Source: a virus (lineage: Duplodnaviria > Caudoviricetes). From it: DNA of 64,000 nt. Positions within the stretch are counted from its first letter, which is position 1; the number at the start of each line of letters is the position of its first letter. The notes beneath the pieces are model-generated. The model saw only the letters and a list, made by a program, of their open reading frames with translations, had not been told where the DNA came from and did no database searches. Shown here in pieces: positions 1,150-40,245 of the stretch. Where the stretch lies: the IMG/VR virus record IMGVR_UViG_3300013426_000014, positions 192,001 through 256,000 of that record; one strand, written 5' to 3'. Position numbers and translations under genes: made by a program.

Positions 1150-2000
1150 TGAAGTTTTTTAATAAGGACATAGATTTGCGCTCGCGTTTTTTCAGTTCGG
1201 TATACGCGTGCGGTGACATACACGGGTCGTTTGATACGTTCATATTTGATCTCAAACGGAAGAAAATCAAGAACGCCGTGGTTATAATATGCGGTGATAT
1301 ATCACTTGGCTTTAGCAAACCGGCATATTACGAGCAGGTGTTCAAGTCGATGCAGGCGAAACTATACGATCTGAATGTCACAGTTCTGATGTTCCGTGGC
1401 AATCATGACGATCCGGACTGGTTCAAGTTCAACGATTCCGGGTTTGATTATGACTATACGAACATTGTGGTGCTCGATGATTATTCGGTCGTCCGGTTGA
1501 AGGACGATCTGTCGGTTCTTGTCATCGGCGGCGCCGTGTCGATCGACCGGAAACTTCGCGAGTTGAACGGGTACAAGTATTGGACAGGTGAGGAGGTTTG
1601 TCTGCCGGAGAAGAACATGATAAAGAAATTCTGTTCGCTGCCCGGTCGGCATATCGTGTGTAGTCACACTGCCCCGGATTTTGTGAACGCGACCGCGGGT
1701 AATGCTCCGGCGGACGTGCTGGAGAATTTTATTTCATTGGGTGATAAGAATCTGCGTGACGACATAGACAAGGACCGGAAAACGTTGACCGAATGTCGGA
1801 AACTTATGGATCCGGCGCCGGAGTTGTGGCTATACGGTCATTTTCACGCGCACGCTGAAGAGACGACTGACGGGATCAAATATGTGATGCTTGATCGTCT
1901 CAGGGATAACATATCGCATACCCGTCATGACATGACAATTCCGGATTCGGATTTCTGGCTAAAGCGAGATGACATATGTGATTGGTATAAGGTATTATAA
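1149..2000 (+). CDS. Calcineurin-like metallophosphoesterase
   Basis: GDIHG, CGD, GNHD, SHT, GHFH motifs. Confidence 0.9.
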   Translation: MKFFNKDIDLRSRFFSSVYACGDIHGSFDTFIFDLKRKKIKNAVVIICGDISLGFSKPAYYEQVFKSMQAKLYDLNVTVLMFRGNHDDPDWFKFNDSGFDYDYTNIVVLDDYSVVRLKDDLSVLVIGGAVSIDRKLRELNGYKYWTGEEVCLPEKNMIKKFCSLPGRHIVCSHTAPDFVNATAGNAPADVLENFISLGDKNLRDDIDKDRKTLTECRKLMDPAPELWLYGHFHAHAEETTDGIKYVMLDRLRDNISHTRHDMTIPDSDFWLKRDDICDWYKVL

Positions 2001-10547: not shown

Positions 10548-10631
10548 GGCCCGGTGATGAAATGGAAGCCATAACTGATTTAAGTCCAGTCGGGCCGCAG
10601 GCCCATGCGGGTTCGAATCCCGCCCGGGCTA
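10548..10631 (+). tRNA. tRNA-Leu(TAA)
   Basis: Loop TTTAAGT, long variable arm. Confidence 0.85.
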
Positions 10632-10647
10632 CGAGAAAATAATGTAT

Positions 10648-10835: not shown

Positions 10836-10906
10836 GCCCCTGTCGCTAATGGTGAAGCAGACAGTCTCCAAAACTGTTAATGCCTGTTCGAGTCGGGCCG
10901 GGGGTG
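10836..10906 (+). tRNA. tRNA-Trp(CCA)
   Basis: ACAGT-CTCCAAA-ACTGT, G73. Confidence 0.85.
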
Positions 10907-10913
10907 CGAAATA

Positions 10914-13182: not shown

Positions 13183-13671
13183 ATGAGAACAAAAATTAAC
13201 ATATTGATTGACAATATCAAAGATAGTTATGCACATATTCCGTATACGATCCGTCATCGACGTGTGTTCAGAATTGTTGAGCGGGAGTTCACCGGCAAGG
13301 TGACACACTGGTTCCATGATATGGACAAACTTGCTCTTTACACGTTCGCGCCGTGGCTTGGCACGCAAAGGATAAGCGATATCCATTGCCGCCGCACCGG
13401 CCATCATCCGAAATACAAAGATAATACCGGTAAGATCGTATATAAAGAAAATATCACTGATGACAATATCGCGGAGATGTTGATTGACTGGGAATCCGCG
13501 CGGTTTACTAAGCCGGATAAGCCGTTGGACATGTACGGCACGCTGATACGGTATTATCCGGAGCTCACTGCCCGGGCGTGTAAAGTCATAAGGGAACGGT
13601 TCCGTCCCGAAACACGGGTGCATGATCCCGCCGATATAATACAGGCGATGAGAATCGGGATGTTCTGGTGA
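13183..13671 (+). CDS. HD-like protein (DUF5662-like)
   Basis: WFHDMDK...H...HHP...EMLIDWESA; ends TGA-TAA. Confidence 0.6.
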   Translation: MRTKINILIDNIKDSYAHIPYTIRHRRVFRIVEREFTGKVTHWFHDMDKLALYTFAPWLGTQRISDIHCRRTGHHPKYKDNTGKIVYKENITDDNIAEMLIDWESARFTKPDKPLDMYGTLIRYYPELTARACKVIRERFRPETRVHDPADIIQAMRIGMFW

Positions 13672-13842
13672 TAATTTTTTATTTTGAAAATTTTTTATTT
13701 ACGAAATATTCACTATCTTTGCGATACAAAAAAAATGAAAGTTGTTTTGTTTTATTTGCCATGATTGTATAAACCCGTGTCCCGGCCGGGACGGTACCAG
13801 ACGCGGGTTCATTAAAAGATTATGAAAAATTTCGGTCCGTCT

Positions 13843-14774: not shown

Positions 14775-14849
14775 TGTGGGATAGAGCAGAGGTAGCTCAT
14801 CAGGCTCATAACCTGAAGGTCGGGGGTTCGAATCCCCCTCCCGCTACCA
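14775..14849 (+). tRNA. tRNA-fMet(CAT)
   Basis: 1:72 mismatch, TCAGG-CTCATAA-CCTGA, CCA. Confidence 0.85.
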
Positions 14850-14859
14850 AAACCGTGAT

Positions 14860-15224
14860 GCCTTCGTAGTTTAACGGTAGAACAATGGTCTTTGAGAATG
14901 TTGAATACAGTTTGTATATGATGTGTATGAATGCTAGCATTCATCCAGATCTTTATATAGAGTGTATTTGACACAATTGGAGCTTGCAAATCGAAAGGTT
15001 TGCAATGGACATGATGATAACGTTGAACCCGTAACAGGTCACGCTGACGGTAACGACGTCGGAACGGTAGATTTGCCGGCCGCGAGAGAGTAGATAATCA
15101 TGCACCTGTAGCGATTGATTTCGTATGGTGAATACGTACTCCAGACCACAACGATTTTTGTCGGCATGGTAACATGCGTGGTAAGCAAAACCATTAAGTG
15201 TGGGTTCGAATCCTACCGAAGGTG
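14860..15224 (+). tRNA. Intron-split opal suppressor tRNA-Trp(TCA); exons 14860-14892 and 15186-15224
   Basis: Spliced anticodon arm ATGGT-CTT|CAAA-ACCAT; acceptor GCCTTCG/CGAAGGT; G73; Trp-like GGTCTTCAAAACC. Confidence 0.85.
14893..15185 (+). mobile_element. Group I self-splicing intron (IC3-like, no ORF)
   Basis: Follows a U and ends in G; IGS TTG-GAG at 14977-14982; P2 TTGCAAATC-GAAA-GGTTTGCAA; P3 CATGAT/ATCATG; P7 GAGAGTA/GTACTC; P9 GCATG-GTAA-CATGC. Confidence 0.88.
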
Positions 15225-15258
15225 CGAATATTAACAGACAGAATTAGATTTATTGATT

Positions 15259-16053
15259 ATGACAGAAACAAAGATGAATACGCTGCTGGCCAGGACAGAT
15301 CATGCTGCGGCGAGTGTGAACAAGATGTTTGCCGATTACGGCGCTTTCTTCAAGACGAAGCAGGGCGCATTCAGAGGCGAGAAGAAGACTTTCGAGCCAA
15401 GGGCCGGATATTTTGAGGATCCGTCTAAAATTGGCAATACTAAGGTTGTCACCACGGTCGGAGAGAAACTCGATTGGTTCAATGATCGTCTTAAGAAATA
15501 TCTTAAGGACGTGTTCACAGTTGAGGAGACGAATTCCGCTGGCGCGAACAGAGTGGAGCTTGTCGTCAACGGCAGGTCATTCGGAAAGTTTACCGCGCTT
15601 GAGCTTATGCGTCTCAAGTCATTGCTGACCAACTCCTCGCTTTCCACCGTATATGAAAACATTCCTGTCCGATCAGATGCGGAGGTGTGGAGTCCTGTGA
15701 CTGATCCTGAGTACGCCGGACGTGAGGTGTTCCAGACGGAGCTCGTCAAGGGCGTTACCCGTACAACAGAGAATGAGGAGGTGATCCTTAAGGATCCGAA
15801 TCTCGATCCTGCTCATCTTCCTTCAAACTATTCGGCGAAAGTGACGGTTAAACGCAAGACCGTCGAGACTGGTGATTACACGCAACAGAAGTTTACCGGC
15901 GAGTGGACACAGCGTCAGCGCGCCGAACTGCTCAAGCGTAAGTCAGATCTTCTCGCCGCCGTTATTGCCGCGCTTAAGGAGGTCAATGACACCGATGTGC
16001 AGCTACCGGAGTTCGACGTTGATTCCATTGTTGACTATATTACCGAAGGGTAA
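15259..16053 (+). CDS. Conserved hypothetical protein (resembles the family recalled as DUF7873; unverified)
   Basis: MNTLLA...FRGEKKTFEP...TTVGEKLDW...LKEVND; followed by a permuted tRNA-like RNA. Confidence 0.6.
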   Translation: MTETKMNTLLARTDHAAASVNKMFADYGAFFKTKQGAFRGEKKTFEPRAGYFEDPSKIGNTKVVTTVGEKLDWFNDRLKKYLKDVFTVEETNSAGANRVELVVNGRSFGKFTALELMRLKSLLTNSSLSTVYENIPVRSDAEVWSPVTDPEYAGREVFQTELVKGVTRTTENEEVILKDPNLDPAHLPSNYSAKVTVKRKTVETGDYTQQKFTGEWTQRQRAELLKRKSDLLAAVIAALKEVNDTDVQLPEFDVDSIVDYITEG

Positions 16054-24874: not shown

Positions 24875-24947
24875 GGGCGTGTGGGATGAGCGGTTTAGTC
24901 CACGGTCTGCAAAACCGTTTGACGCCGGTTCGAATCCGGCCTCGCCC
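24875..24947 (+). tRNA. tRNA-Cys(GCA)
   Basis: ACGGT-CTGCAAA-ACCGT, U73. Confidence 0.85.
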
Positions 24948-25077
24948 TCGGATTTGGATATTTAATGTGATATATACAATACACATAGATTTAATAGATT
25001 TAAGTTTTTGATTACACCTCTTTTTTGGTCCCGGATTTGTTGTGAAATAAGTTCGGGACATTTTATATATAATAATC

Positions 25078-26014: not shown

Positions 26015-26919
26015 TGGGTTGCGGCACATATAGCTCCGCCGCACGGGAGATCCGTGCGGCGGAGAATGGTTATCGCGACAAATCCGCACGTGAGATATTC
26101 ACGGAGCGGTCATTGAATTCAGAGATGTCGCCGTACGGGCTTGACGTCAGGGAGTCTCGCGATTCAGCGGAACATCCGGATTCGTTCCCGATCATCATCG
26201 CGCTTGACGTCACCGGATCGATGGGCTCAATCCCCACGTATCTTGTCAAGAGGGGATTGCCCGCCATCATGGACAAGATCATAAAGTCCGGCATTAAGGA
26301 TCCACAGGTTCTTTTCCTTGGCATCGGTGATCATGAGTGGGACGATGCGCCGCTGCAGGTCGGACAGTTCGAATCGTCTGACGAACTTCTCGATCACTGG
26401 CTCACGAAAGTATACATCGAAGGGGGCGGCGGCGGTAATGACGGTGAGTCATACCTGCTCGCGTGGGATGTCGCTGCGAGGCATACGTCGACCGACGCGT
26501 GGGAAAAACGCAAAAAGAAAGGATTGTGCGTCACAATTGGTGACGAGAAGACCCTTGAAACCGTACCGCTTTCCGATATGAAGAGATTATACGGTCCGGA
26601 TTGCGCCGGTCAGTCCGCGGGTGACGCGAACATGTTGTTTGTGGCGGCGTCTGAAAAATGGGAATGCTTTCATATCAACCTGACATCCACATATTCCGGA
26701 AAACGCCCTTCCGTTCAGTCGTTCTGGAAGCAGCTATGCGGTGATCATTGCGTTATCGTTGACGACAAGGAGAAAGTCGCGGATGTGATTGCGGATCTCG
26801 CCATAAAGACATACGGTGAAGTCAAGCCTGAAACTGTCGGGCTGGATGACGATGATAATTTCACGATCAAGCCGGCGGGCACAAAGCGGGCCGTTCCGGA
26901 TGACGACTGGGACGATTAA
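26014..26919 (+). CDS. vWA-domain protein
   Basis: MIDAS IIIALDVTGSMG; GGGGNDGESY; TIGDE. Confidence 0.85.
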   Translation: MGCGTYSSAAREIRAAENGYRDKSAREIFTERSLNSEMSPYGLDVRESRDSAEHPDSFPIIIALDVTGSMGSIPTYLVKRGLPAIMDKIIKSGIKDPQVLFLGIGDHEWDDAPLQVGQFESSDELLDHWLTKVYIEGGGGGNDGESYLLAWDVAARHTSTDAWEKRKKKGLCVTIGDEKTLETVPLSDMKRLYGPDCAGQSAGDANMLFVAASEKWECFHINLTSTYSGKRPSVQSFWKQLCGDHCVIVDDKEKVADVIADLAIKTYGEVKPETVGLDDDDNFTIKPAGTKRAVPDDDWDD

Positions 26920-26952
26920 AAATCAGCAACATCAAAATAATTACATAAAAAT

Positions 26953-27066
26953 ATGGGATGTATCAATTACGGGACAGCTCCGATTGAGGTCGAGAAGCAG
27001 GAACAGGTGAAGTCTGATACCGAAAACAAAGAGCATCAGAATAACGACGCGGCGGAAGAATCTTAG
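26953..27066 (+). CDS. 37-aa acidic peptide
   Basis: MGCINYGTAPIEVEKQEQ...; followed by a terminator. Confidence 0.5.
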   Translation: MGCINYGTAPIEVEKQEQVKSDTENKEHQNNDAAEES

Positions 27067-27190
27067 TTCGGCGCCGGAAGTGAATGATTCAGCGGATCCG
27101 TTTTTTACAGGCGGATCCGCGTTTTTTATTATAAAAATTTCCATATGTGAAAATAAAGCGTTATATTTGTGTTGTTAATTGAATTGGATT

Positions 27191-28690
27191 ATGGTAGAGA
27201 CAACACATGTAAAAACAAATATCGTTATCGGTATGGGATTCGGTGACGAGGGAAAAGGCAGAGTCACCGCATGGCTCGCCGATAAAATGGCGCGGACAAC
27301 GTCGGCGCCGTACAGAGACAAGGCGGCGTGTGTCGTCAGGTTTTCCGGCGGGCAGCAGGCGGGACATACCGTCGTGTCGAAACTTGACGGGATGATACCG
27401 TACACGTTCGAGTCAGACAAGTACAGTCATCAAATCCGTCATGTGTTCTCGACCCTCGGTTCCGGGACGCTTTCGGACTTTAATACGTATGTCTCGAAAT
27501 ACTGCGTGTTCGATCCGCAATGCGCTGTGAACGAGTTCCGTGCCATCGGGAATGAGATTGAGAACGAGCTGGTCGGAGTCCCGGTCAAGGGTTTTGATAT
27601 GATCATGCCAGATGACGCCGCTCATGACATGTGCGGAAAATATTGGATGTATCTTCCGAAATGCGTCATCGACCCCCGCGTCCCGTTGACCACACCGTAT
27701 GAGGTGTACGCAAACCAACATTCGGGTGACACCATTTCGGACGGCACGTGCGGGATGGGCGTGTGGGCGACGCGCGTCCGTGAGACGGCGGGTATCTCGA
27801 TCACCGCCGGCGATATGCGGTATCCCGTCGTCTTACGGACCAAACTGAAATCACTCGCCGGCTGGTACCGCAAATCCGGCGTCTTGCCGGCAGATATCGA
27901 TCTCGAGCTCGACAGATGGCTTTCCGCCGTCGATTTGATCATCAGGGACAGCAGACATTTTTCAATCGGTCCGCTTCCCGCATGTTCGGACGGATTGATA
28001 TTCGAAGGGTCACAGGGACTGTTGCTTGACCAGACGCATGGTTTCGCGCCGAACACGACGCCGTCCGATACCGGACTGTCCAACCTCACCGCGTTCGATA
28101 ACGATCTTGGTTTCGGTAAACGTCCGATTAACATGCTCAACGACATATTCTTACGAAACAACGGCGAAGACATGCGCGACATTGTGTTCTCTTCTGACAT
28201 ATATCTCGTCACCCGCGCGTATCAGACGCGGCACGGCGCCGGTTTCATGACGAACGAGACGCTGCCGCACAATATCGCGGATGATCCGGACGAGACAAAT
28301 GTGATGAACGAGTGGCAGAAAGATTTCAGAAAATCAATTCTTGACGTCGATCTGCTCAATTACGCGCTCGACCGCCACATGATATGCGAGACGGTGAACG
28401 GCACGAAGTCGAGACTTCATCTCGTTGTGACATGTGTCGATCATGTGCGTGACGCGTTGTGCTTCACTGAGAACGGGAAGATGCGGCAGTTTTCTGACAC
28501 AGACGAGTTCATCGCGGAAATCGGATCGGCGCTGTTTGACCACAGGACGATCACCAGTGAGGTAAAGCTGCATTATAGCGATTCGCCGTCCGGCCAGATA
28601 AAGGATGCGATGTCGAAACAGGAATATATGCGCCGTAACTACGTGAGATATGCGAGCACATATGATTCGAATTGCGTCGCGATAGGTTAA
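27191..28690 (+). CDS. purA: Adenylosuccinate synthetase-like protein
   Basis: GMGFGDEGKG, RFSGGQQAGHT, GTCGMG, FEGSQGLLLD, RAYQTRHGAG. Confidence 0.85.
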   Translation: MVETTHVKTNIVIGMGFGDEGKGRVTAWLADKMARTTSAPYRDKAACVVRFSGGQQAGHTVVSKLDGMIPYTFESDKYSHQIRHVFSTLGSGTLSDFNTYVSKYCVFDPQCAVNEFRAIGNEIENELVGVPVKGFDMIMPDDAAHDMCGKYWMYLPKCVIDPRVPLTTPYEVYANQHSGDTISDGTCGMGVWATRVRETAGISITAGDMRYPVVLRTKLKSLAGWYRKSGVLPADIDLELDRWLSAVDLIIRDSRHFSIGPLPACSDGLIFEGSQGLLLDQTHGFAPNTTPSDTGLSNLTAFDNDLGFGKRPINMLNDIFLRNNGEDMRDIVFSSDIYLVTRAYQTRHGAGFMTNETLPHNIADDPDETNVMNEWQKDFRKSILDVDLLNYALDRHMICETVNGTKSRLHLVVTCVDHVRDALCFTENGKMRQFSDTDEFIAEIGSALFDHRTITSEVKLHYSDSPSGQIKDAMSKQEYMRRNYVRYASTYDSNCVAIG

Positions 28691-36090: not shown

Positions 36091-37215
36091 ATGATGAACT
36101 GATATAATTCTTATAATATTCCATTGTCGGAAGGTTTTGACATGTCGAACATGTCGGATTCTGACTATACCGACACATTCGCCGACGCGGACAACAACGC
36201 TGTGCGTGACGCTGCGGTGAACGCATTTATCGCGGCCTGTGTCGAAGCGAATGACGAATCGGTCAAACTACAGTCCGGTAAATATTGTCTCGCTCAGATA
36301 CAATTTTGTTCAAACGCAGAAAAATGAAAGGGATTTGAATATCAAGGTATATTAAGATATCCGTCAGATGATAGGATCGTGAATATCGATGAGGACGGTT
36401 TACGTGCGATCACCAGGGCGGAATATGATACTGACGGTATTCAGATTATCATTGATCCGGAAAAAGTCGGGCAATTGCCTGGACGGATTTACAGTCTGAG
36501 CTTACGCATCGGATCCGGAATTAAATTTCCTATAGAGTGATCATCGATTTCATTATCCGGCCGTGATGTAGGCAGGAAGTACGCGCTTAAATTGTCTGTG
36601 ATTCCGTCTTCCGACAGAAAATTGTCATGTATGCCGAAACGGGTTGTCGGTAATTTCATACTTTTGGCGTCAGAAGGTCCGGTCGGACTGTATAGACATC
36701 CGATGAAATCATACGATGGATGCCCGGAATATGTTGCAGGTAATTGCACAATCGAATATGGGGCATGATGTAAGGATCCATTCCCACGTGATTTTACAGG
36801 ATGTCCAAAATATGTCGGCGGTAATTTTACGGTATTGCTGAATCCATATAATGGCGCGGACTCGTTTCATAAAACGTTCGAGTCCGGCACTGGACTGCCT
36901 ATTGAAATCGGAGGTCATGCAGATCTTCAATACATACGGGATCTTGTTAAAAGGTCAAAGAATGGCGGGCTGATATCTTTATGTCCAGATGGGATGCGAA
37001 GGAGTTGAAAGTCATGCACATTGTTCATACCGTATAATAATTATTATGAAGTCCGTACAAACGGAAAATACAAGGGCGTTCCTATTGACGATAAGGTCGC
37101 GGGTAAAAAGCTTAACATAGATGACGGCAAAATCAGTATATTGCTTGATGACATCAATATATCAGATAAAGCATGGATTGTTTATTTCACTCCCGGATTA
37201 TCAAGAAAGCGTTAA
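36091..37215 (+). CDS. EDFD-family repeat protein, 374 aa, TGA=Trp (36100, 36325, 36538, 36766, 37006)
   Basis: LSEGFDMSNMSDSDYTDTFAD; GCPEYVAGN, GCPKYVGGNF, GLPIEIGG; no TAA/TAG until 37213. Confidence 0.85.
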
Positions 37216-37225
37216 TAAATTGATT

Positions 37226-38602
37226 ATGAAACTATATAACATTAAATCTGGATTGAATTTATCAAATCAAAGGATAACTGAGGATTTTGATCTGTCCAGA
37301 GAAGATGACGCAGACTGAACCGACGCCATGTCGGACTCCGATGATGAAGCGATGGAGTTTTATACGTTTGTCACGACATTAAGATCTGCTGTACAACTAT
37401 ATGTACAGAACGAGGATGGTAAAGCTGTATATAAAAAAGGAACGGATCCGTCGCTCGATATATTGTTCAAAACATCTGTGACTGGAACAAACGCGGATGG
37501 ATATGACGTGCGGTTGTTTTCTTGTCCGGCTGCTAATCAACTACTTTCGAGTATACATGGCAGAGCCGCTGCCGAAAATATGTATAATACCCACAGTGAA
37601 CATACTTATATAGTAAGAGCACGGCAGGTGCTGATCTGTCTGGATCTTTCCGCCCTGCCGGCGAATTTTCCGGTATGACGTCTTCCTCGACAGAAGGTTG
37701 ATGGTTTCAATGTCATGCATATGTTATATGTAATACCGTCTGCAGACGGCTCTTTACGTGGGATGCCGGAATTTATTGCCGGTAATGTATATATAGGCAA
37801 AGAGGAAGAAGAGAAAGAGGAAGAAGTTGGACCATTGGAAAAAGAGATATTATGACCAATGGATGCATCAGTGCGTCCAGTTCGGTCGATGACAGGATCG
37901 CCGCAAATAGTTGAAGGCAATTTCCGGGCGGTTATTATATGTCCTGATTCCAGTATGGTATCGTCTGATATTCTGAACGGATCACCGAAATGGGTTACTG
38001 GAATTTTTAGAATTATAGGGTTAAACAGGATTGATTGACCGGCATATAACTCATTTCTGTGAGATTCGGACGGTGCCATCCGGCCGGCGTTCACAGATGG
38101 TGTAAGCCGGATGTACGGTCAAATTTACATAGACATACTGCATCCGGGTGTTGATTCATCAGCAATAGATTTATCAACAATAAAATCAGATGAGCGAACA
38201 AAGTGAACAGATTATATAGAGTTTGAACAATACAGTTATCGTTGTAGACTAACACATATAATGTTTCCTGATACTATTGTATTAGGTTGCATATGACATA
38301 TTAAAATATATGGAGATCCAGATGATACGGCACGATGATTGAAGAAAATCAATATTGATACACGAATTAACGAAGGTTTCGACATGTCGGATATGTCAGA
38401 TATCGACTATACTGAAACGTTCGCGGACGCGGATCATGAGGCGCAGATGGTCAATAACTTTCTTAACGCGTTGTCGCACGATATCATTGAACTCGCACCG
38501 TTTTCAATGATATATCACAATCCGGAGTACCGACAGTTTACAGCGAAATCTACCGGAAGGATCAAATCACGTGCCGCCGCGAAAAAGTCGTCAGTATGAT
38601 AG
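37226..38602 (+). CDS. EDFD-family protein with 8 sense TGAs (37316, 37676, 37853, 38036, 38060, 38204, 38294, 38336), fused in frame to the next EDFD unit
   Basis: SFL*DSDGAIRPAFTDG aligns with SFLWDGKGNIIPAFTDG (TGG at 18894); frame ends TGA-TAG at 38597-38602. Confidence 0.8.
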
Positions 38603-39231
38603 GGCATGCTCGCTACATAGACGGCGAGGTCATATATACCATGTCACCGTTACATAATTGAGAAGTGACGGTCGATTTGTCTCGGAACTGCTTGCGTGAT
38701 TTTGTTTTGAACGGCGGCAGATGACGGCGGGAAGCTCCCGATCCGGATCCCGAAGATCAATTTTACCACATGCATGTCATACCCGGACTGGCCGGTGATT
38801 TGACAGGATGCCCGGCTTATACAGACGCGTATTTCACTGTTGATGATAACGATGGTCGTCTGACATCGCTGTACGGCGCGCCGGAATGAGCGGACCGTGA
38901 TTTTGAGTACATATATCAAGGTGATGAGTGACTGGGTAAACATAATTACACCTACATGATGGGTCCTTTGCAGTCGCTTGAATGATCACCTGAATATGTT
39001 GGCGGCACATTCTGGATACAGGGAGCGAATCTGACAGATCTGACTGGCATGCCGGCGAAAGTTACCGGACAGGTGAGAATCAAAGATTCTATGATGCCGG
39101 AAATTTACGCGGGATTAAACTGTGGTGGTGACAGCGTGCCGCCGGAACTGCTGCCTACCGGGCGATGCGCGATAACAGTAAGGAATCCGTGCGACATGGG
39201 AGCACCGTTCAGGATATGGTCGTCAATTTAA
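38339..39231 (+). pseudogene. EDFD-family unit with a -1 frameshift near 38500 and 5 sense TGAs downstream
   Basis: INEGFDMSDMSDIDYTETFAD; the repeats (DLTGCP, LTSLYGAPE, DLTGMPAKVTG) lie in the 39049 frame. Confidence 0.65.
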
Positions 39232-39276
39232 TAGGATAAAACAATTTAATAGGATAAAACAAATAATAAAGACTAT

Positions 39277-40245
39277 ATGTTGTCATTAAACGAAGATTTT
39301 GACTTTACCGATATGTCGGATACCGATTACACAAATACATTCGCCGATATCGATGAATCCGCGGAAAAAGAAAAGGCTTTACAGGATGCGTTCTGAACAG
39401 ATTATGTGCCATGCTACCGTGATTATCCGTCTGTGACAGTGATATGTAAGAGCAAAAATGATATTCCGGAATTATCCGTCACAATAGTGGACAATCCGTA
39501 TTGAAATCCTGCTATTATTCTGGATTTGGCGCGTGGCGGATTTGCCGGTTTCATTAAAAAATATGGTGATTATATTATTCGCGGCGGCAAATCCGGATCT
39601 ATAGCAGGTACGGTATCACGTCTATTATTACAATTCATCCCGACATCAGACTTTAACCTTATCGGAGCACCGGTAGAGACAATCGGGTTGAATGTTTGTA
39701 TCGGCAAGAATGACCGTACTACTGGCCCGGCTCTCCAAAAATATGATCCCCGCGTCGCAATTCGTTCATATCAGCTGAACTCATTAGACGGATGCCCGCG
39801 CCGGATTACCCGCGGAAATTTCAATATCACCAATTGTCCAAATCTAAATTCGTTAAAAGGATCGCCGGAACACATCGATTATAATATGTCTGTTCGTAAA
39901 TGTGGAGGGGAACGCATAAAAAATTTAGACGGTATGCCAGAATATATCGGCGGAACATTTTATTCAATTAAATCTATACAGCCGGTCGGGCATGATCCAG
40001 ACACAGGTGAATGACGGCGGCTGCTGACAACTGGAACAGTGCAAGTCGGTGGTATCACCATATTGAATACCATACCGGCGGAGCCGAGCTACGACATCAC
40101 ATCTAATGACGCAAAAAATCCGAAAAGCAAAGCAGGTAAGGTATACAAAATGGTAACAGCTGGAATCACCAGTCATACCGGCGCGGATATTGTCAAAGGA
40201 TCTGTTGAAGTTGACACATCAATTCCGATCAATGAGATAAGATAA
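39277..40245 (+). CDS. EDFD-family repeat protein, 322 aa, TGA=Trp (39394, 39502, 40012)
   Basis: LNEDFDFTDMSDTDYTNTFAD; SLDGCP, SLKGSP, NLDGMPEYIGG. Confidence 0.85.

Follow-up and report, generated by a model that had tools for sequence, protein, structure and literature searches.

An opal-suppressor tRNA gene of probable tryptophan type in a TGA-recoded phage, split within its anticodon by a probably mobile group I intron

We analyzed a 64-kb stretch (hereafter, the window; positions are counted from its first base) of a 269-kb record of a pig-gut jumbo phage in IMG/VR (IMGVR_UViG_3300013426_000014) that is estimated to be 87% complete. We consider it quite likely that the window contains, at 14860-15224, an opal-suppressor tRNA(UCA) gene of tryptophan (Trp) type that is split between anticodon positions 34 and 35 by an IC3-like group I intron without an open reading frame (ORF), and that this intron is a mobile element and not a required regulator of the gene. 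The evidence comes from natural alleles that lack the insert, from covariation within the insert, from the use of TGA codons in the record, and from the distribution of the insert among related phages.

The split tRNA(UCA) gene and the codon it would read

The 5' exon (14860-14892, + strand) comprises the 5' strand of the acceptor stem (GCCTTCG), the D arm, and the anticodon-stem strand ATGGT, followed by C32, U33, and U34. The 3' exon (15186-15224, + strand) begins with C35 and A36 in the segment CAAA and continues with ACCAT, the T arm, the acceptor strand CGAAGGT, and discriminator base G73; the CCA end is not encoded in it. Between them lies a 293-nt insert (14893-15185) whose last base is G. 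An earlier reading made from the DNA letters alone (hereafter, the sequence-only reading) had placed the ends of the halves at ATGGT-CTT (14892) and CAAA-ACCAT (15186) on either side of a 293-nt insert, and all of these are present in the window. When the exons were joined in silico, they formed a 73-nt cloverleaf with the anticodon UCA, which ARAGORN called as tRNA(tca).

Natural alleles that lack the insert demonstrate where the exons meet. They read ...GGTCTTCAAAACC... across the junction, and both of their exons are 100% identical to those of the window; the 5' exon matches the uninterrupted genes of L003, L091, L093, L095, L096, L098, L099, and L100 at 100% (L numbers denote contigs compared with the window). 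Because the bases flanking the insert differ and the boundary is fixed by these alleles, the junction can only be CUU|CAA, which bears out the junction and the UCA anticodon that had been proposed. Two other junctions, CU|GCAAA, which would give a cysteine (Cys) tRNA, and CUUU|AAA, which would give an ochre anticodon, were excluded by the intron-less alleles together with the terminal-G rule. ARAGORN labels the tRNA 'SeC', and this identity was rejected as well. A tRNA-Sec has a long variable arm, extended acceptor and D stems, and a length of about 90 nt; the joined exons measure 73 nt and fold into a class I cloverleaf whose variable loop has 5 nt, and the TGA columns correspond to Trp.

When introns were allowed, ARAGORN returned the same junction, reported as i(34,293). 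This mode also makes chimeric false 'introns' between adjacent tRNAs, and for that reason we did not count it as stand-alone evidence. In its default mode, ARAGORN calls an artefactual tRNA-Cys(gca) at 15154-15225 (+ strand) that is composed of the 3' end of the intron and the 3' exon, and the Rfam tRNA model gives this same stretch 17.4 bits, which is under threshold. Standard tRNA finders thus miss the suppressor gene because the intron splits it, and the warning in the sequence-only reading that they might miss or miscall it was justified. All 33 tRNA calls of the 269-kb record fall within the window, and there is no second suppressor tRNA among them, which leaves the split gene as the single tRNA(UCA) of the record. 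In default mode, ARAGORN called separate genes for tRNA-Trp(CCA) (10836-10907) and tRNA-Cys(GCA) (24875-24949), as had been noted. The split gene starts 10 nt after a tRNA-Met gene (14775-14849) and ends 28 nt before a DUF7873 gene (15253-16053).

The codon usage of the record implies that the phage reads TGA as an amino acid. In a crude gene call of the record (210 genes), every stop codon is TAA or TAG, in-frame TGA codons number 251 vs. 809 TGG codons, and 90 of the 210 genes contain TGA. The TGA-bearing genes are concentrated at 16-160 kb of the record. Genes of the window are nearly free of TGA, with the exception of a paralogous gene block (36091-40245, + strand) that contains 22 in-frame TGA codons and whose paralog alignments run across them; this block represents the main genes of the window that need the suppressor. 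The portal, head-closure, baseplate-wedge, and ATPase genes likewise contain internal TGA codons, and these lie inside the regions that were matched. The two in the portal gene (W176 and W288) fall in columns that contain Trp in 120 of 120 aligned homologs, as is also the case for its six TGG codons, which demonstrates that TGA means Trp in this phage. Two TGA codons in a helicase ORF were dropped as candidates for recoding, since both lie upstream of the likely start. The record yielded no RF-1 domain and no tryptophanyl-tRNA synthetase (TrpRS; class Ib synthetase domain).

The spliced tRNA itself resembles a tRNA-Trp. Its G73 and G1-U72 pair also occur in the tRNA-Trp(CCA) of the phage, the member of the array to which it is most similar, although by a narrow margin (68% vs. 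66%). A 30-nt pattern from exon 2 matched eight viral or metagenome sequences, seven of which are Trp(CCA) or suppressor (Sup)(UCA) genes; the eighth is in L022. The identification of the gene as an opal suppressor of Trp type, which had also been the conclusion of the sequence-only reading, appears well supported by the Trp columns of the portal protein, G73, and the narrow similarity to tRNA-Trp(CCA).

Other features of TGA usage were observed in passing. The block at 36091-40245 consists of at least four tandem paralogs, all with an acidic motif at the N terminus (FDMS.MSD.DYT.TFAD) and with repeats of the form G.P.Y..G.F; in the first gene, five of six Trp codons are TGA. Two gene starts appear to lie within the ORF at 37121-38602, after which the following gene runs on in a different frame. 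TGA occurs within the last three codons before TAA or TAG in 8 of the 210 genes, compared to about two expected; examples lie at 26277-28049 (- strand) of the record and at 13183-13674 and 38339-38602 of the window. Such a late TGA followed by TAA or TAG may act as a tandem stop that ends the protein under both readings of TGA.

Group I architecture and splice-site guide of the insert

A model of the insert with helices P1 to P9 was drawn by hand, refined by comparison of the window with L001 and L007, and converted into a covariance model (R1) built from these three sequences. P7 was left out of R1 because it forms a pseudoknot. R1 scores the Sup(UCA) introns of the window, L001, and L007 at 268, 267, and 208 bits, respectively, and the introns of tRNA-Leu(UAA) genes in L024 and L020 at 87 and 58 bits. 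It found 62 further copies in relatives and IMG/VR phages, so that 63 were aligned in all; an IMG/VR scan with the shared J8/7-P7-P9 motif had contributed 56 more contigs. An IMG/VR scan with a first core motif gave no matches, and a blastn search of the locus against INPHARED phages gave short tRNA-like matches only.

All elements of the intron lie on the + strand. P2 (14984-15005) is a hairpin with a GAAA tetraloop in which nine of nine pairs change on both sides and 92.6% of alignment cells are paired. P3 is formed by 15010-15015 and 15097-15102; six of six pairs covary, and 97.6% of cells are paired. P4 (15020-15025 with 15054-15059; 99% paired), P5 (15029-15050), and P6/P6a (15060-15082) were placed in register by homology to the L020 intron, which is annotated by Rfam, and to L024; other pairings of this region (129-132/171-174, a hairpin 152-157/165-170, and 129-133/159-163) were rejected after alignment to these two introns. 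The 5' strand of P7 (15086-15092, GAGAGUA) contains a bulged A15087, and covariation is seen with its 3' strand (15137-15142, UACUCC). Although P7 did not enter R1, 97.1% of its cells are paired across 58 distinct sequences, and its pair 198/247 occurs as CG (34 times), GC (10), GU (5), and AU (1). G15088 and C15141, beside the bulged A15087, occupy the site of the guanosine-binding pair, and 50 of 51 sequences have GC there; the role of the P7 G-C pair as guanosine-binding site is established (PMC10020454). P8 (15103-15130) has a fully paired outer stem (100%) and a CCUGUAG / UAUGG motif that resembles the 11-nt GAAA-tetraloop receptor, which is present in canonical form (CCUAAG / UAUGG) in P8 of relatives such as L020. 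J8/7 (15131-15136, AAUACG) follows. P9 (15145-15182) is a three-way element whose second hairpin carries a GUAA tetraloop and whose closing stem is 97.9% paired, with one pair found as UA 28 times and as CG 25 times. The terminal guanosine (omega-G, 15185) is a G in 61 of 63 aligned copies, and the boundary at this base was set independently by the intron-less alleles.

The proposed pairs covary well beyond chance. In the large set (58 distinct sequences, with P7 added), 91.9% of cells are paired, compared to 66.6% in shuffled controls (0 of 500 shuffles reach the observed value) and 30-46% when strands were slid; changes on both sides of a pair number 774 cells vs. 231 in shuffled and 85-116 in slid controls. 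In the small set of six sequences, 93.9% of cells are paired vs. 76.5% when shuffled, and 32 of 62 pairs show changes on both sides vs. 14.7 when shuffled (0 of 500) and 5-10 when slid. These values are to be read with the caveat that the alignment was fitted to the structure of the model, P7 excepted. The P2 GAAA hairpin, P3, P7, GTAA loop of P9, and terminal G listed in the sequence-only reading are all present, and the covariation gives them a firmer basis. The insert appears well supported, by comparison of sequences, as a group I intron with a P3/P7 pseudoknot. The possibility that it is not a ribozyme, and is instead a protein-spliced bulge-helix-bulge intron or an unrelated disrupting insertion, could draw on the 'enigmatic' introns that are left unclassified in the part of the Lak phage report dealing with tRNAs (PMC6784885) and on the absence of an Rfam match to the window copy. 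We regard it as extremely unlikely, since the insertion is at 34/35 and not at 37/38, the P1-P9 architecture is complete and covaries strongly, the insert is homologous to an intron that Rfam recognizes (L020), and the rule of a U at position -1 and a terminal G is obeyed.

The guide that would select the 5' splice site is also supported by comparison. The 5' strand of P1 (14890-14895) consists of exon CUU and intron UGA, with U14892 in a U-G wobble at the splice site, and the internal guide UUG-GAG (14977-14982) pairs through GAG with exon CUU. The G immediately 5' of GAG pairs with U1 of the intron (in P1) or with the C of exon 2 (in P10). In the window the guide lies about 85 nt from the 5' splice site; its placement is supported by L007, which has no insert in the P1 loop (L1) and has the same GGAG 10 nt from the splice site. 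Moreover, the base before GAG follows the host gene. It is G in 16 of 16 introns with a CAAA 3' exon (the window, L001, L002, L007, and 12 IMG/VR contigs) and in most introns of Arg(UCU) genes (3' exon CUAA), and it is mostly U and sometimes A in introns of Leu(UAA) genes (3' exon AAAA). This tracking of the exon context is the pattern expected of a base whose partners are the first base of the intron (in P1) and the first base of exon 2 (in P10), and it supports the earlier placement of guide, P1 with its U-G pair, and P10. In L078:1664-1876 (- strand), a core of the suppressor clade (139 bits) resides in a tRNA-Leu(UAA) gene and has U before GAG; to judge from its sequence, L078 is a natural case of retargeting through one guide base.

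The same intron family is found in several tRNA hosts. After application of the U(-1)/terminal-G rule, the IMG/VR hosts were Leu(UAA) (22), Arg(UCU) (11), Sup(UCA) (7 fully resolved), and a few others, and a suppressor-type 3' exon is present in at least 12 IMG/VR contigs. In the suppressor, Leu, and Arg hosts, YUU or CUC precedes the splice site, and almost all resolved cases have CUU. The Arg(UCU) genes, split as CUU|CUAA, are in the IMG/VR contigs L046, L049, L050, L051, L070, L073, L079, L081, L084, L089, and L090; ARAGORN in intron mode often mislabels them as Ser(gct) because it sets the junction one base off. The classical group I intron of tRNA-Leu(UAA) is present in the tRNA arrays of relatives, at L020:1876-2599 (- strand), L024:~104-359, L007:~620-1236, and L037:10893-11769, and in some of these cases its P1 loop contains an ORF for an HNH endonuclease. 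In the window, the tRNA-Leu(UAA) gene (10548-10632) is uninterrupted. In L086:~1640-1730 (- strand), the suppressor 3' exon that follows the intron has a long extra arm, and the loop of this arm, CUCCAAC, is close to the anticodon loop of tRNA-Trp.

One base of the core is unusual. Position 15133 in J8/7 is U in the window copy only and G in 60 of 60 other members compared, including the sister allele of 333 nt. Alignment to the Rfam consensus makes it the equivalent of G303 of the Tetrahymena intron, which contacts a P1 base pair and positions the helix (PMC10020454). The U may stem from an error in the assembly, or it may be a neutral or an attenuating substitution. At its most severe, the intron would no longer splice, the gene would be inactive, and the reading of UGA would fall to a tRNA of the host, to a co-infecting relative, or to a gene within the 13% of the genome that was not assembled. 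The replacement of an otherwise invariant G at a position that helps P1 docking, the 87% completeness of the record, and the failure of Rfam to see the window copy would all fit such a loss, which we nevertheless judge to be very unlikely. The window copy can form each of the 62 proposed pairs, so that every helix pairs perfectly, and it matches 59 of the 64 columns that are conserved at 90% or more in other sequences; of the five columns that differ, three or more belong to compensated pairs (two make up one P4 pair, and one is in a P6 pair). In addition, the exons are 100% identical to those of intact alleles, and about 250 in-frame TGA codons, including those of the portal gene, have no other decoder that we found.

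Several points nevertheless weigh against our interpretation of the locus as a functional, intron-split Trp suppressor. The U at 15133 might weaken P1 docking. P1 joins the exon through only 3 bp and is enlarged by an insertion of 75 nt. Searches with Rfam RF00028 gave no match in the window, either at the gathering threshold or at E <= 10, and none in the whole genome. The group I assignment of the sequence-only reading thus drew a divided answer from Rfam, which is blind to the window copy and recognizes a homolog: the intron at L020:1899-2089 reaches 51.8 bits vs. a threshold of 50 (E 1.7e-10), the sole further copy to do so, and its alignment displays the classical R and S elements. According to an excerpt of Williams 2020 (bioRxiv 10.1101/2020.01.27.920355), the Rfam seed held no bacterial introns. 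Trp identity appears from the sequence to rest on few elements (G73, C35, and A36 are present), and another suppressor tRNA could be encoded in the missing part of the 87%-complete record.

Presence and absence of the intron and the question of regulation

The DUF7873 gene downstream of the split tRNA has 540 homologs and is kept in hundreds of large gut-phage contigs, and the contigs that encode its closest homologs were compared at the tRNA site. One and the same DUF7873 protein, 97% identical to that of the window, is encoded by ten contigs, most of which come from pig-gut metagenomes. Sources of the contigs include PRJEB11755 and ERR10930206. The tRNA is uninterrupted in seven of them (L091, L093, L095, L096, L098, L099, and L100; also in L003:3890-3962), and the other three (L092, L094, and L097, the same records as L001/L002) have a 333-nt insert at the same point. 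In a 318-kb contig (L007/L008) whose neighboring protein is 71% identical, the tRNA(UCA) has diverged and is interrupted at the same site by 212 nt; the sister of this contig (L024/L025) has the same tRNA without the insert. The exon-2 motif was also seen in Sup(UCA) genes without an interruption in three further metagenome contigs (L017, L018, and L020). The intron is thus polymorphic among close relatives. More distant DUF7873 homologs (L005, L009-L015, and L026-L028) have no suppressor tRNA beside the gene, and the position adjoining DUF7873 is kept by the suppressor tRNA only in the closest relatives. Searches of IMG/VR for the locus with three neighboring proteins found no relatives.

The L1 insert varies as well. 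In the window, an extended hairpin of 75 nt by minimum-free-energy fold occupies L1 (14899-14973, + strand); the extra hairpin of about 70 nt that had been described before is therefore real. It is missing in L007 and is 115 nt long in L001, and no second copy was found elsewhere in the genome. The same slot is occupied by HNH endonucleases in L020 and L037, by an ORF of 157-160 amino acids in the suppressor introns of L042, L044, and L059, and by an HNH-like ORF of 226 amino acids in L072. From this comparison, the window hairpin reads as variable filler in a slot used by mobile ORFs, and not as a demonstrated regulator. The ORF shared by L042:11255-11845 (- strand), L044:9862-10464, and L059:4478-5081 (- strand) is conserved and is interrupted by one TGA in two of the three, and the sequence that encodes its C terminus overlaps the region of the guide and P2.

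These distributions bear on the main functional proposal of the sequence-only reading, namely that splicing gates a switch of the genetic code, so that the timing of TGA-containing late genes would depend on it. The rate would be set by GTP and Mg2+, by the hairpin in L1, or, as the present comparison adds, by a weakened J8/7. One premise of this proposal holds for this genome, in which no UGA decoder exists before splicing (the sole tRNA(UCA) has a split anticodon). The genes around the tRNA array are nearly free of TGA and the structural genes are rich in it, as fits an early/late model of recoding (10.1101/2021.08.26.457843), and either the unique G-to-U change in J8/7 or the large L1 hairpin could slow splicing. 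However, a regulatory element would be expected to be conserved wherever the system exists, and the intron is missing in 7 of 10 near-identical relatives and in L024/L025, while Sup(UCA) is uninterrupted in L017, L018, and L020; these relatives imply that a recoding lifestyle needs no intron. Furthermore, the L1 insert is variable and serves relatives as a slot for endonuclease ORFs, and the same intron family resides in Leu and Arg tRNAs of the ordinary kind. We found no ligand-sensing element, and no dedicated promoter or terminator was found at the split tRNA, where a scan showed no excess over shuffled sequences. We conclude that the gated switch is improbable and that, on the comparative and population evidence from sequences, the intron is a tolerated mobile element for which a regulatory role is unlikely. 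A narrower proposal is that the ribozyme is rate-limiting in this strain, with the J8/7 change and L1 hairpin slowing the docking of the 5' splice site so that the UGA-decoding tRNA lags; we think this unlikely. If it were true, the lag would delay the TGA-containing structural genes, and a selfish intron would have been co-opted as a code-switch timer in some strains.

The pattern of a mobile, selfish element, which we prefer, follows from the absence of the intron in 7 of 10 near-identical contigs and from the endonuclease-type ORFs in related suppressor introns. Under this interpretation, the gene would be transcribed together with the tRNA array, and the intron would fold such that guide GAG pairs with exon CUU, leaving the U-G wobble at the splice site for attack by free guanosine. 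P10, formed by the guide G and exon C35, and the terminal G would then align the 3' splice site, and ligation of the exons would create the anticodon loop CUUCAAA. The self-spliced tRNA, presumably charged with Trp by the TrpRS of the host, would read the approximately 250 in-frame TGA codons as Trp. Most likely, the intron has spread as a selfish element among the CUU-ending anticodon loops (Leu-UAA, Arg-UCU, and Sup-UCA) of phage tRNA arrays, and it would be tolerated because its splicing is efficient and, we infer, constitutive.

Relation to known tRNA introns and suppressors

Group I introns at the same position of tRNA-Leu(UAA) genes are classical. In excerpts of Williams 2020 (10.1101/2020.01.27.920355), they are designated 'Leu.3Ug' of subgroup IC3, and 21 bacterial tRNA settings of group I introns are listed. 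Like the cyanobacterial and plastid tRNA-Leu(UAA) introns, the window intron is inserted after U34 (CUU|) and has a GAG guide, a U-G wobble, a compact core, GNRA loops on P2 and P9, a receptor-like motif in P8, and a terminal G, and R1 aligns it with the Leu(UAA) introns of relatives (L024, 87 bits; L020, 58 bits). In contrast to them, its host gene is a phage stop-codon suppressor tRNA(UCA), its guide has G instead of U before GAG, matching exon C35, its P1 contains a 75-nt hairpin, and the Rfam model does not score it.

Opal suppressor tRNAs of TGA-recoded gut phages were described by Borges et al. (10.1101/2021.08.26.457843) and Yutin et al. 2021 (PMC7886860). The phage studied here resembles theirs in having a tRNA(UCA), in using in-frame TGA as Trp in structural genes, and in carrying the tRNA in a region compatible with the standard code. 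Unlike their suppressors, the window gene is split by a ribozyme and is invisible to ARAGORN and the Rfam tRNA model; these papers mention no introns in suppressors. Devoto et al. 2019 (PMC6784885), in the part of their report that deals with them, describe 'enigmatic', unclassified introns in tRNAs of Lak megaphages. As far as that part goes, they are, like the window intron, tRNA introns of large gut phages that are identical across cohorts and present or absent between strains; in contrast to the window intron, which is a group I intron in a code-changing tRNA, they are unclassified and their named hosts are ordinary (Tyr and Thr). A 2026 survey mentions 'intronic sequences' in jumbo-phage tRNAs (PMC13037316). 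Our full-text literature searches found no description of a group I intron inside a phage suppressor tRNA.

Suppressor tRNAs were detected in only 35-40% of recoded phage genomes (10.1101/2021.08.26.457843; PMC7886860). The window gene provides one concrete reason why suppressors are missing from such surveys, namely an intron that splits the anticodon, is not scored by Rfam, and leads to a false Cys call. The occurrence of suppressor-type introns in at least 12 IMG/VR contigs implies that a covariance model combined with a U(-1)/terminal-G screen could recover hidden code-change genes. The intron family also illustrates how an intron of the tRNA-Leu type is retargeted to new anticodon loops, with one guide base tracking the 3' exon. 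In this phage, the whole late proteome would depend on a ribozyme, and the locus thus offers a natural system in which to ask whether translation is timed by splicing.

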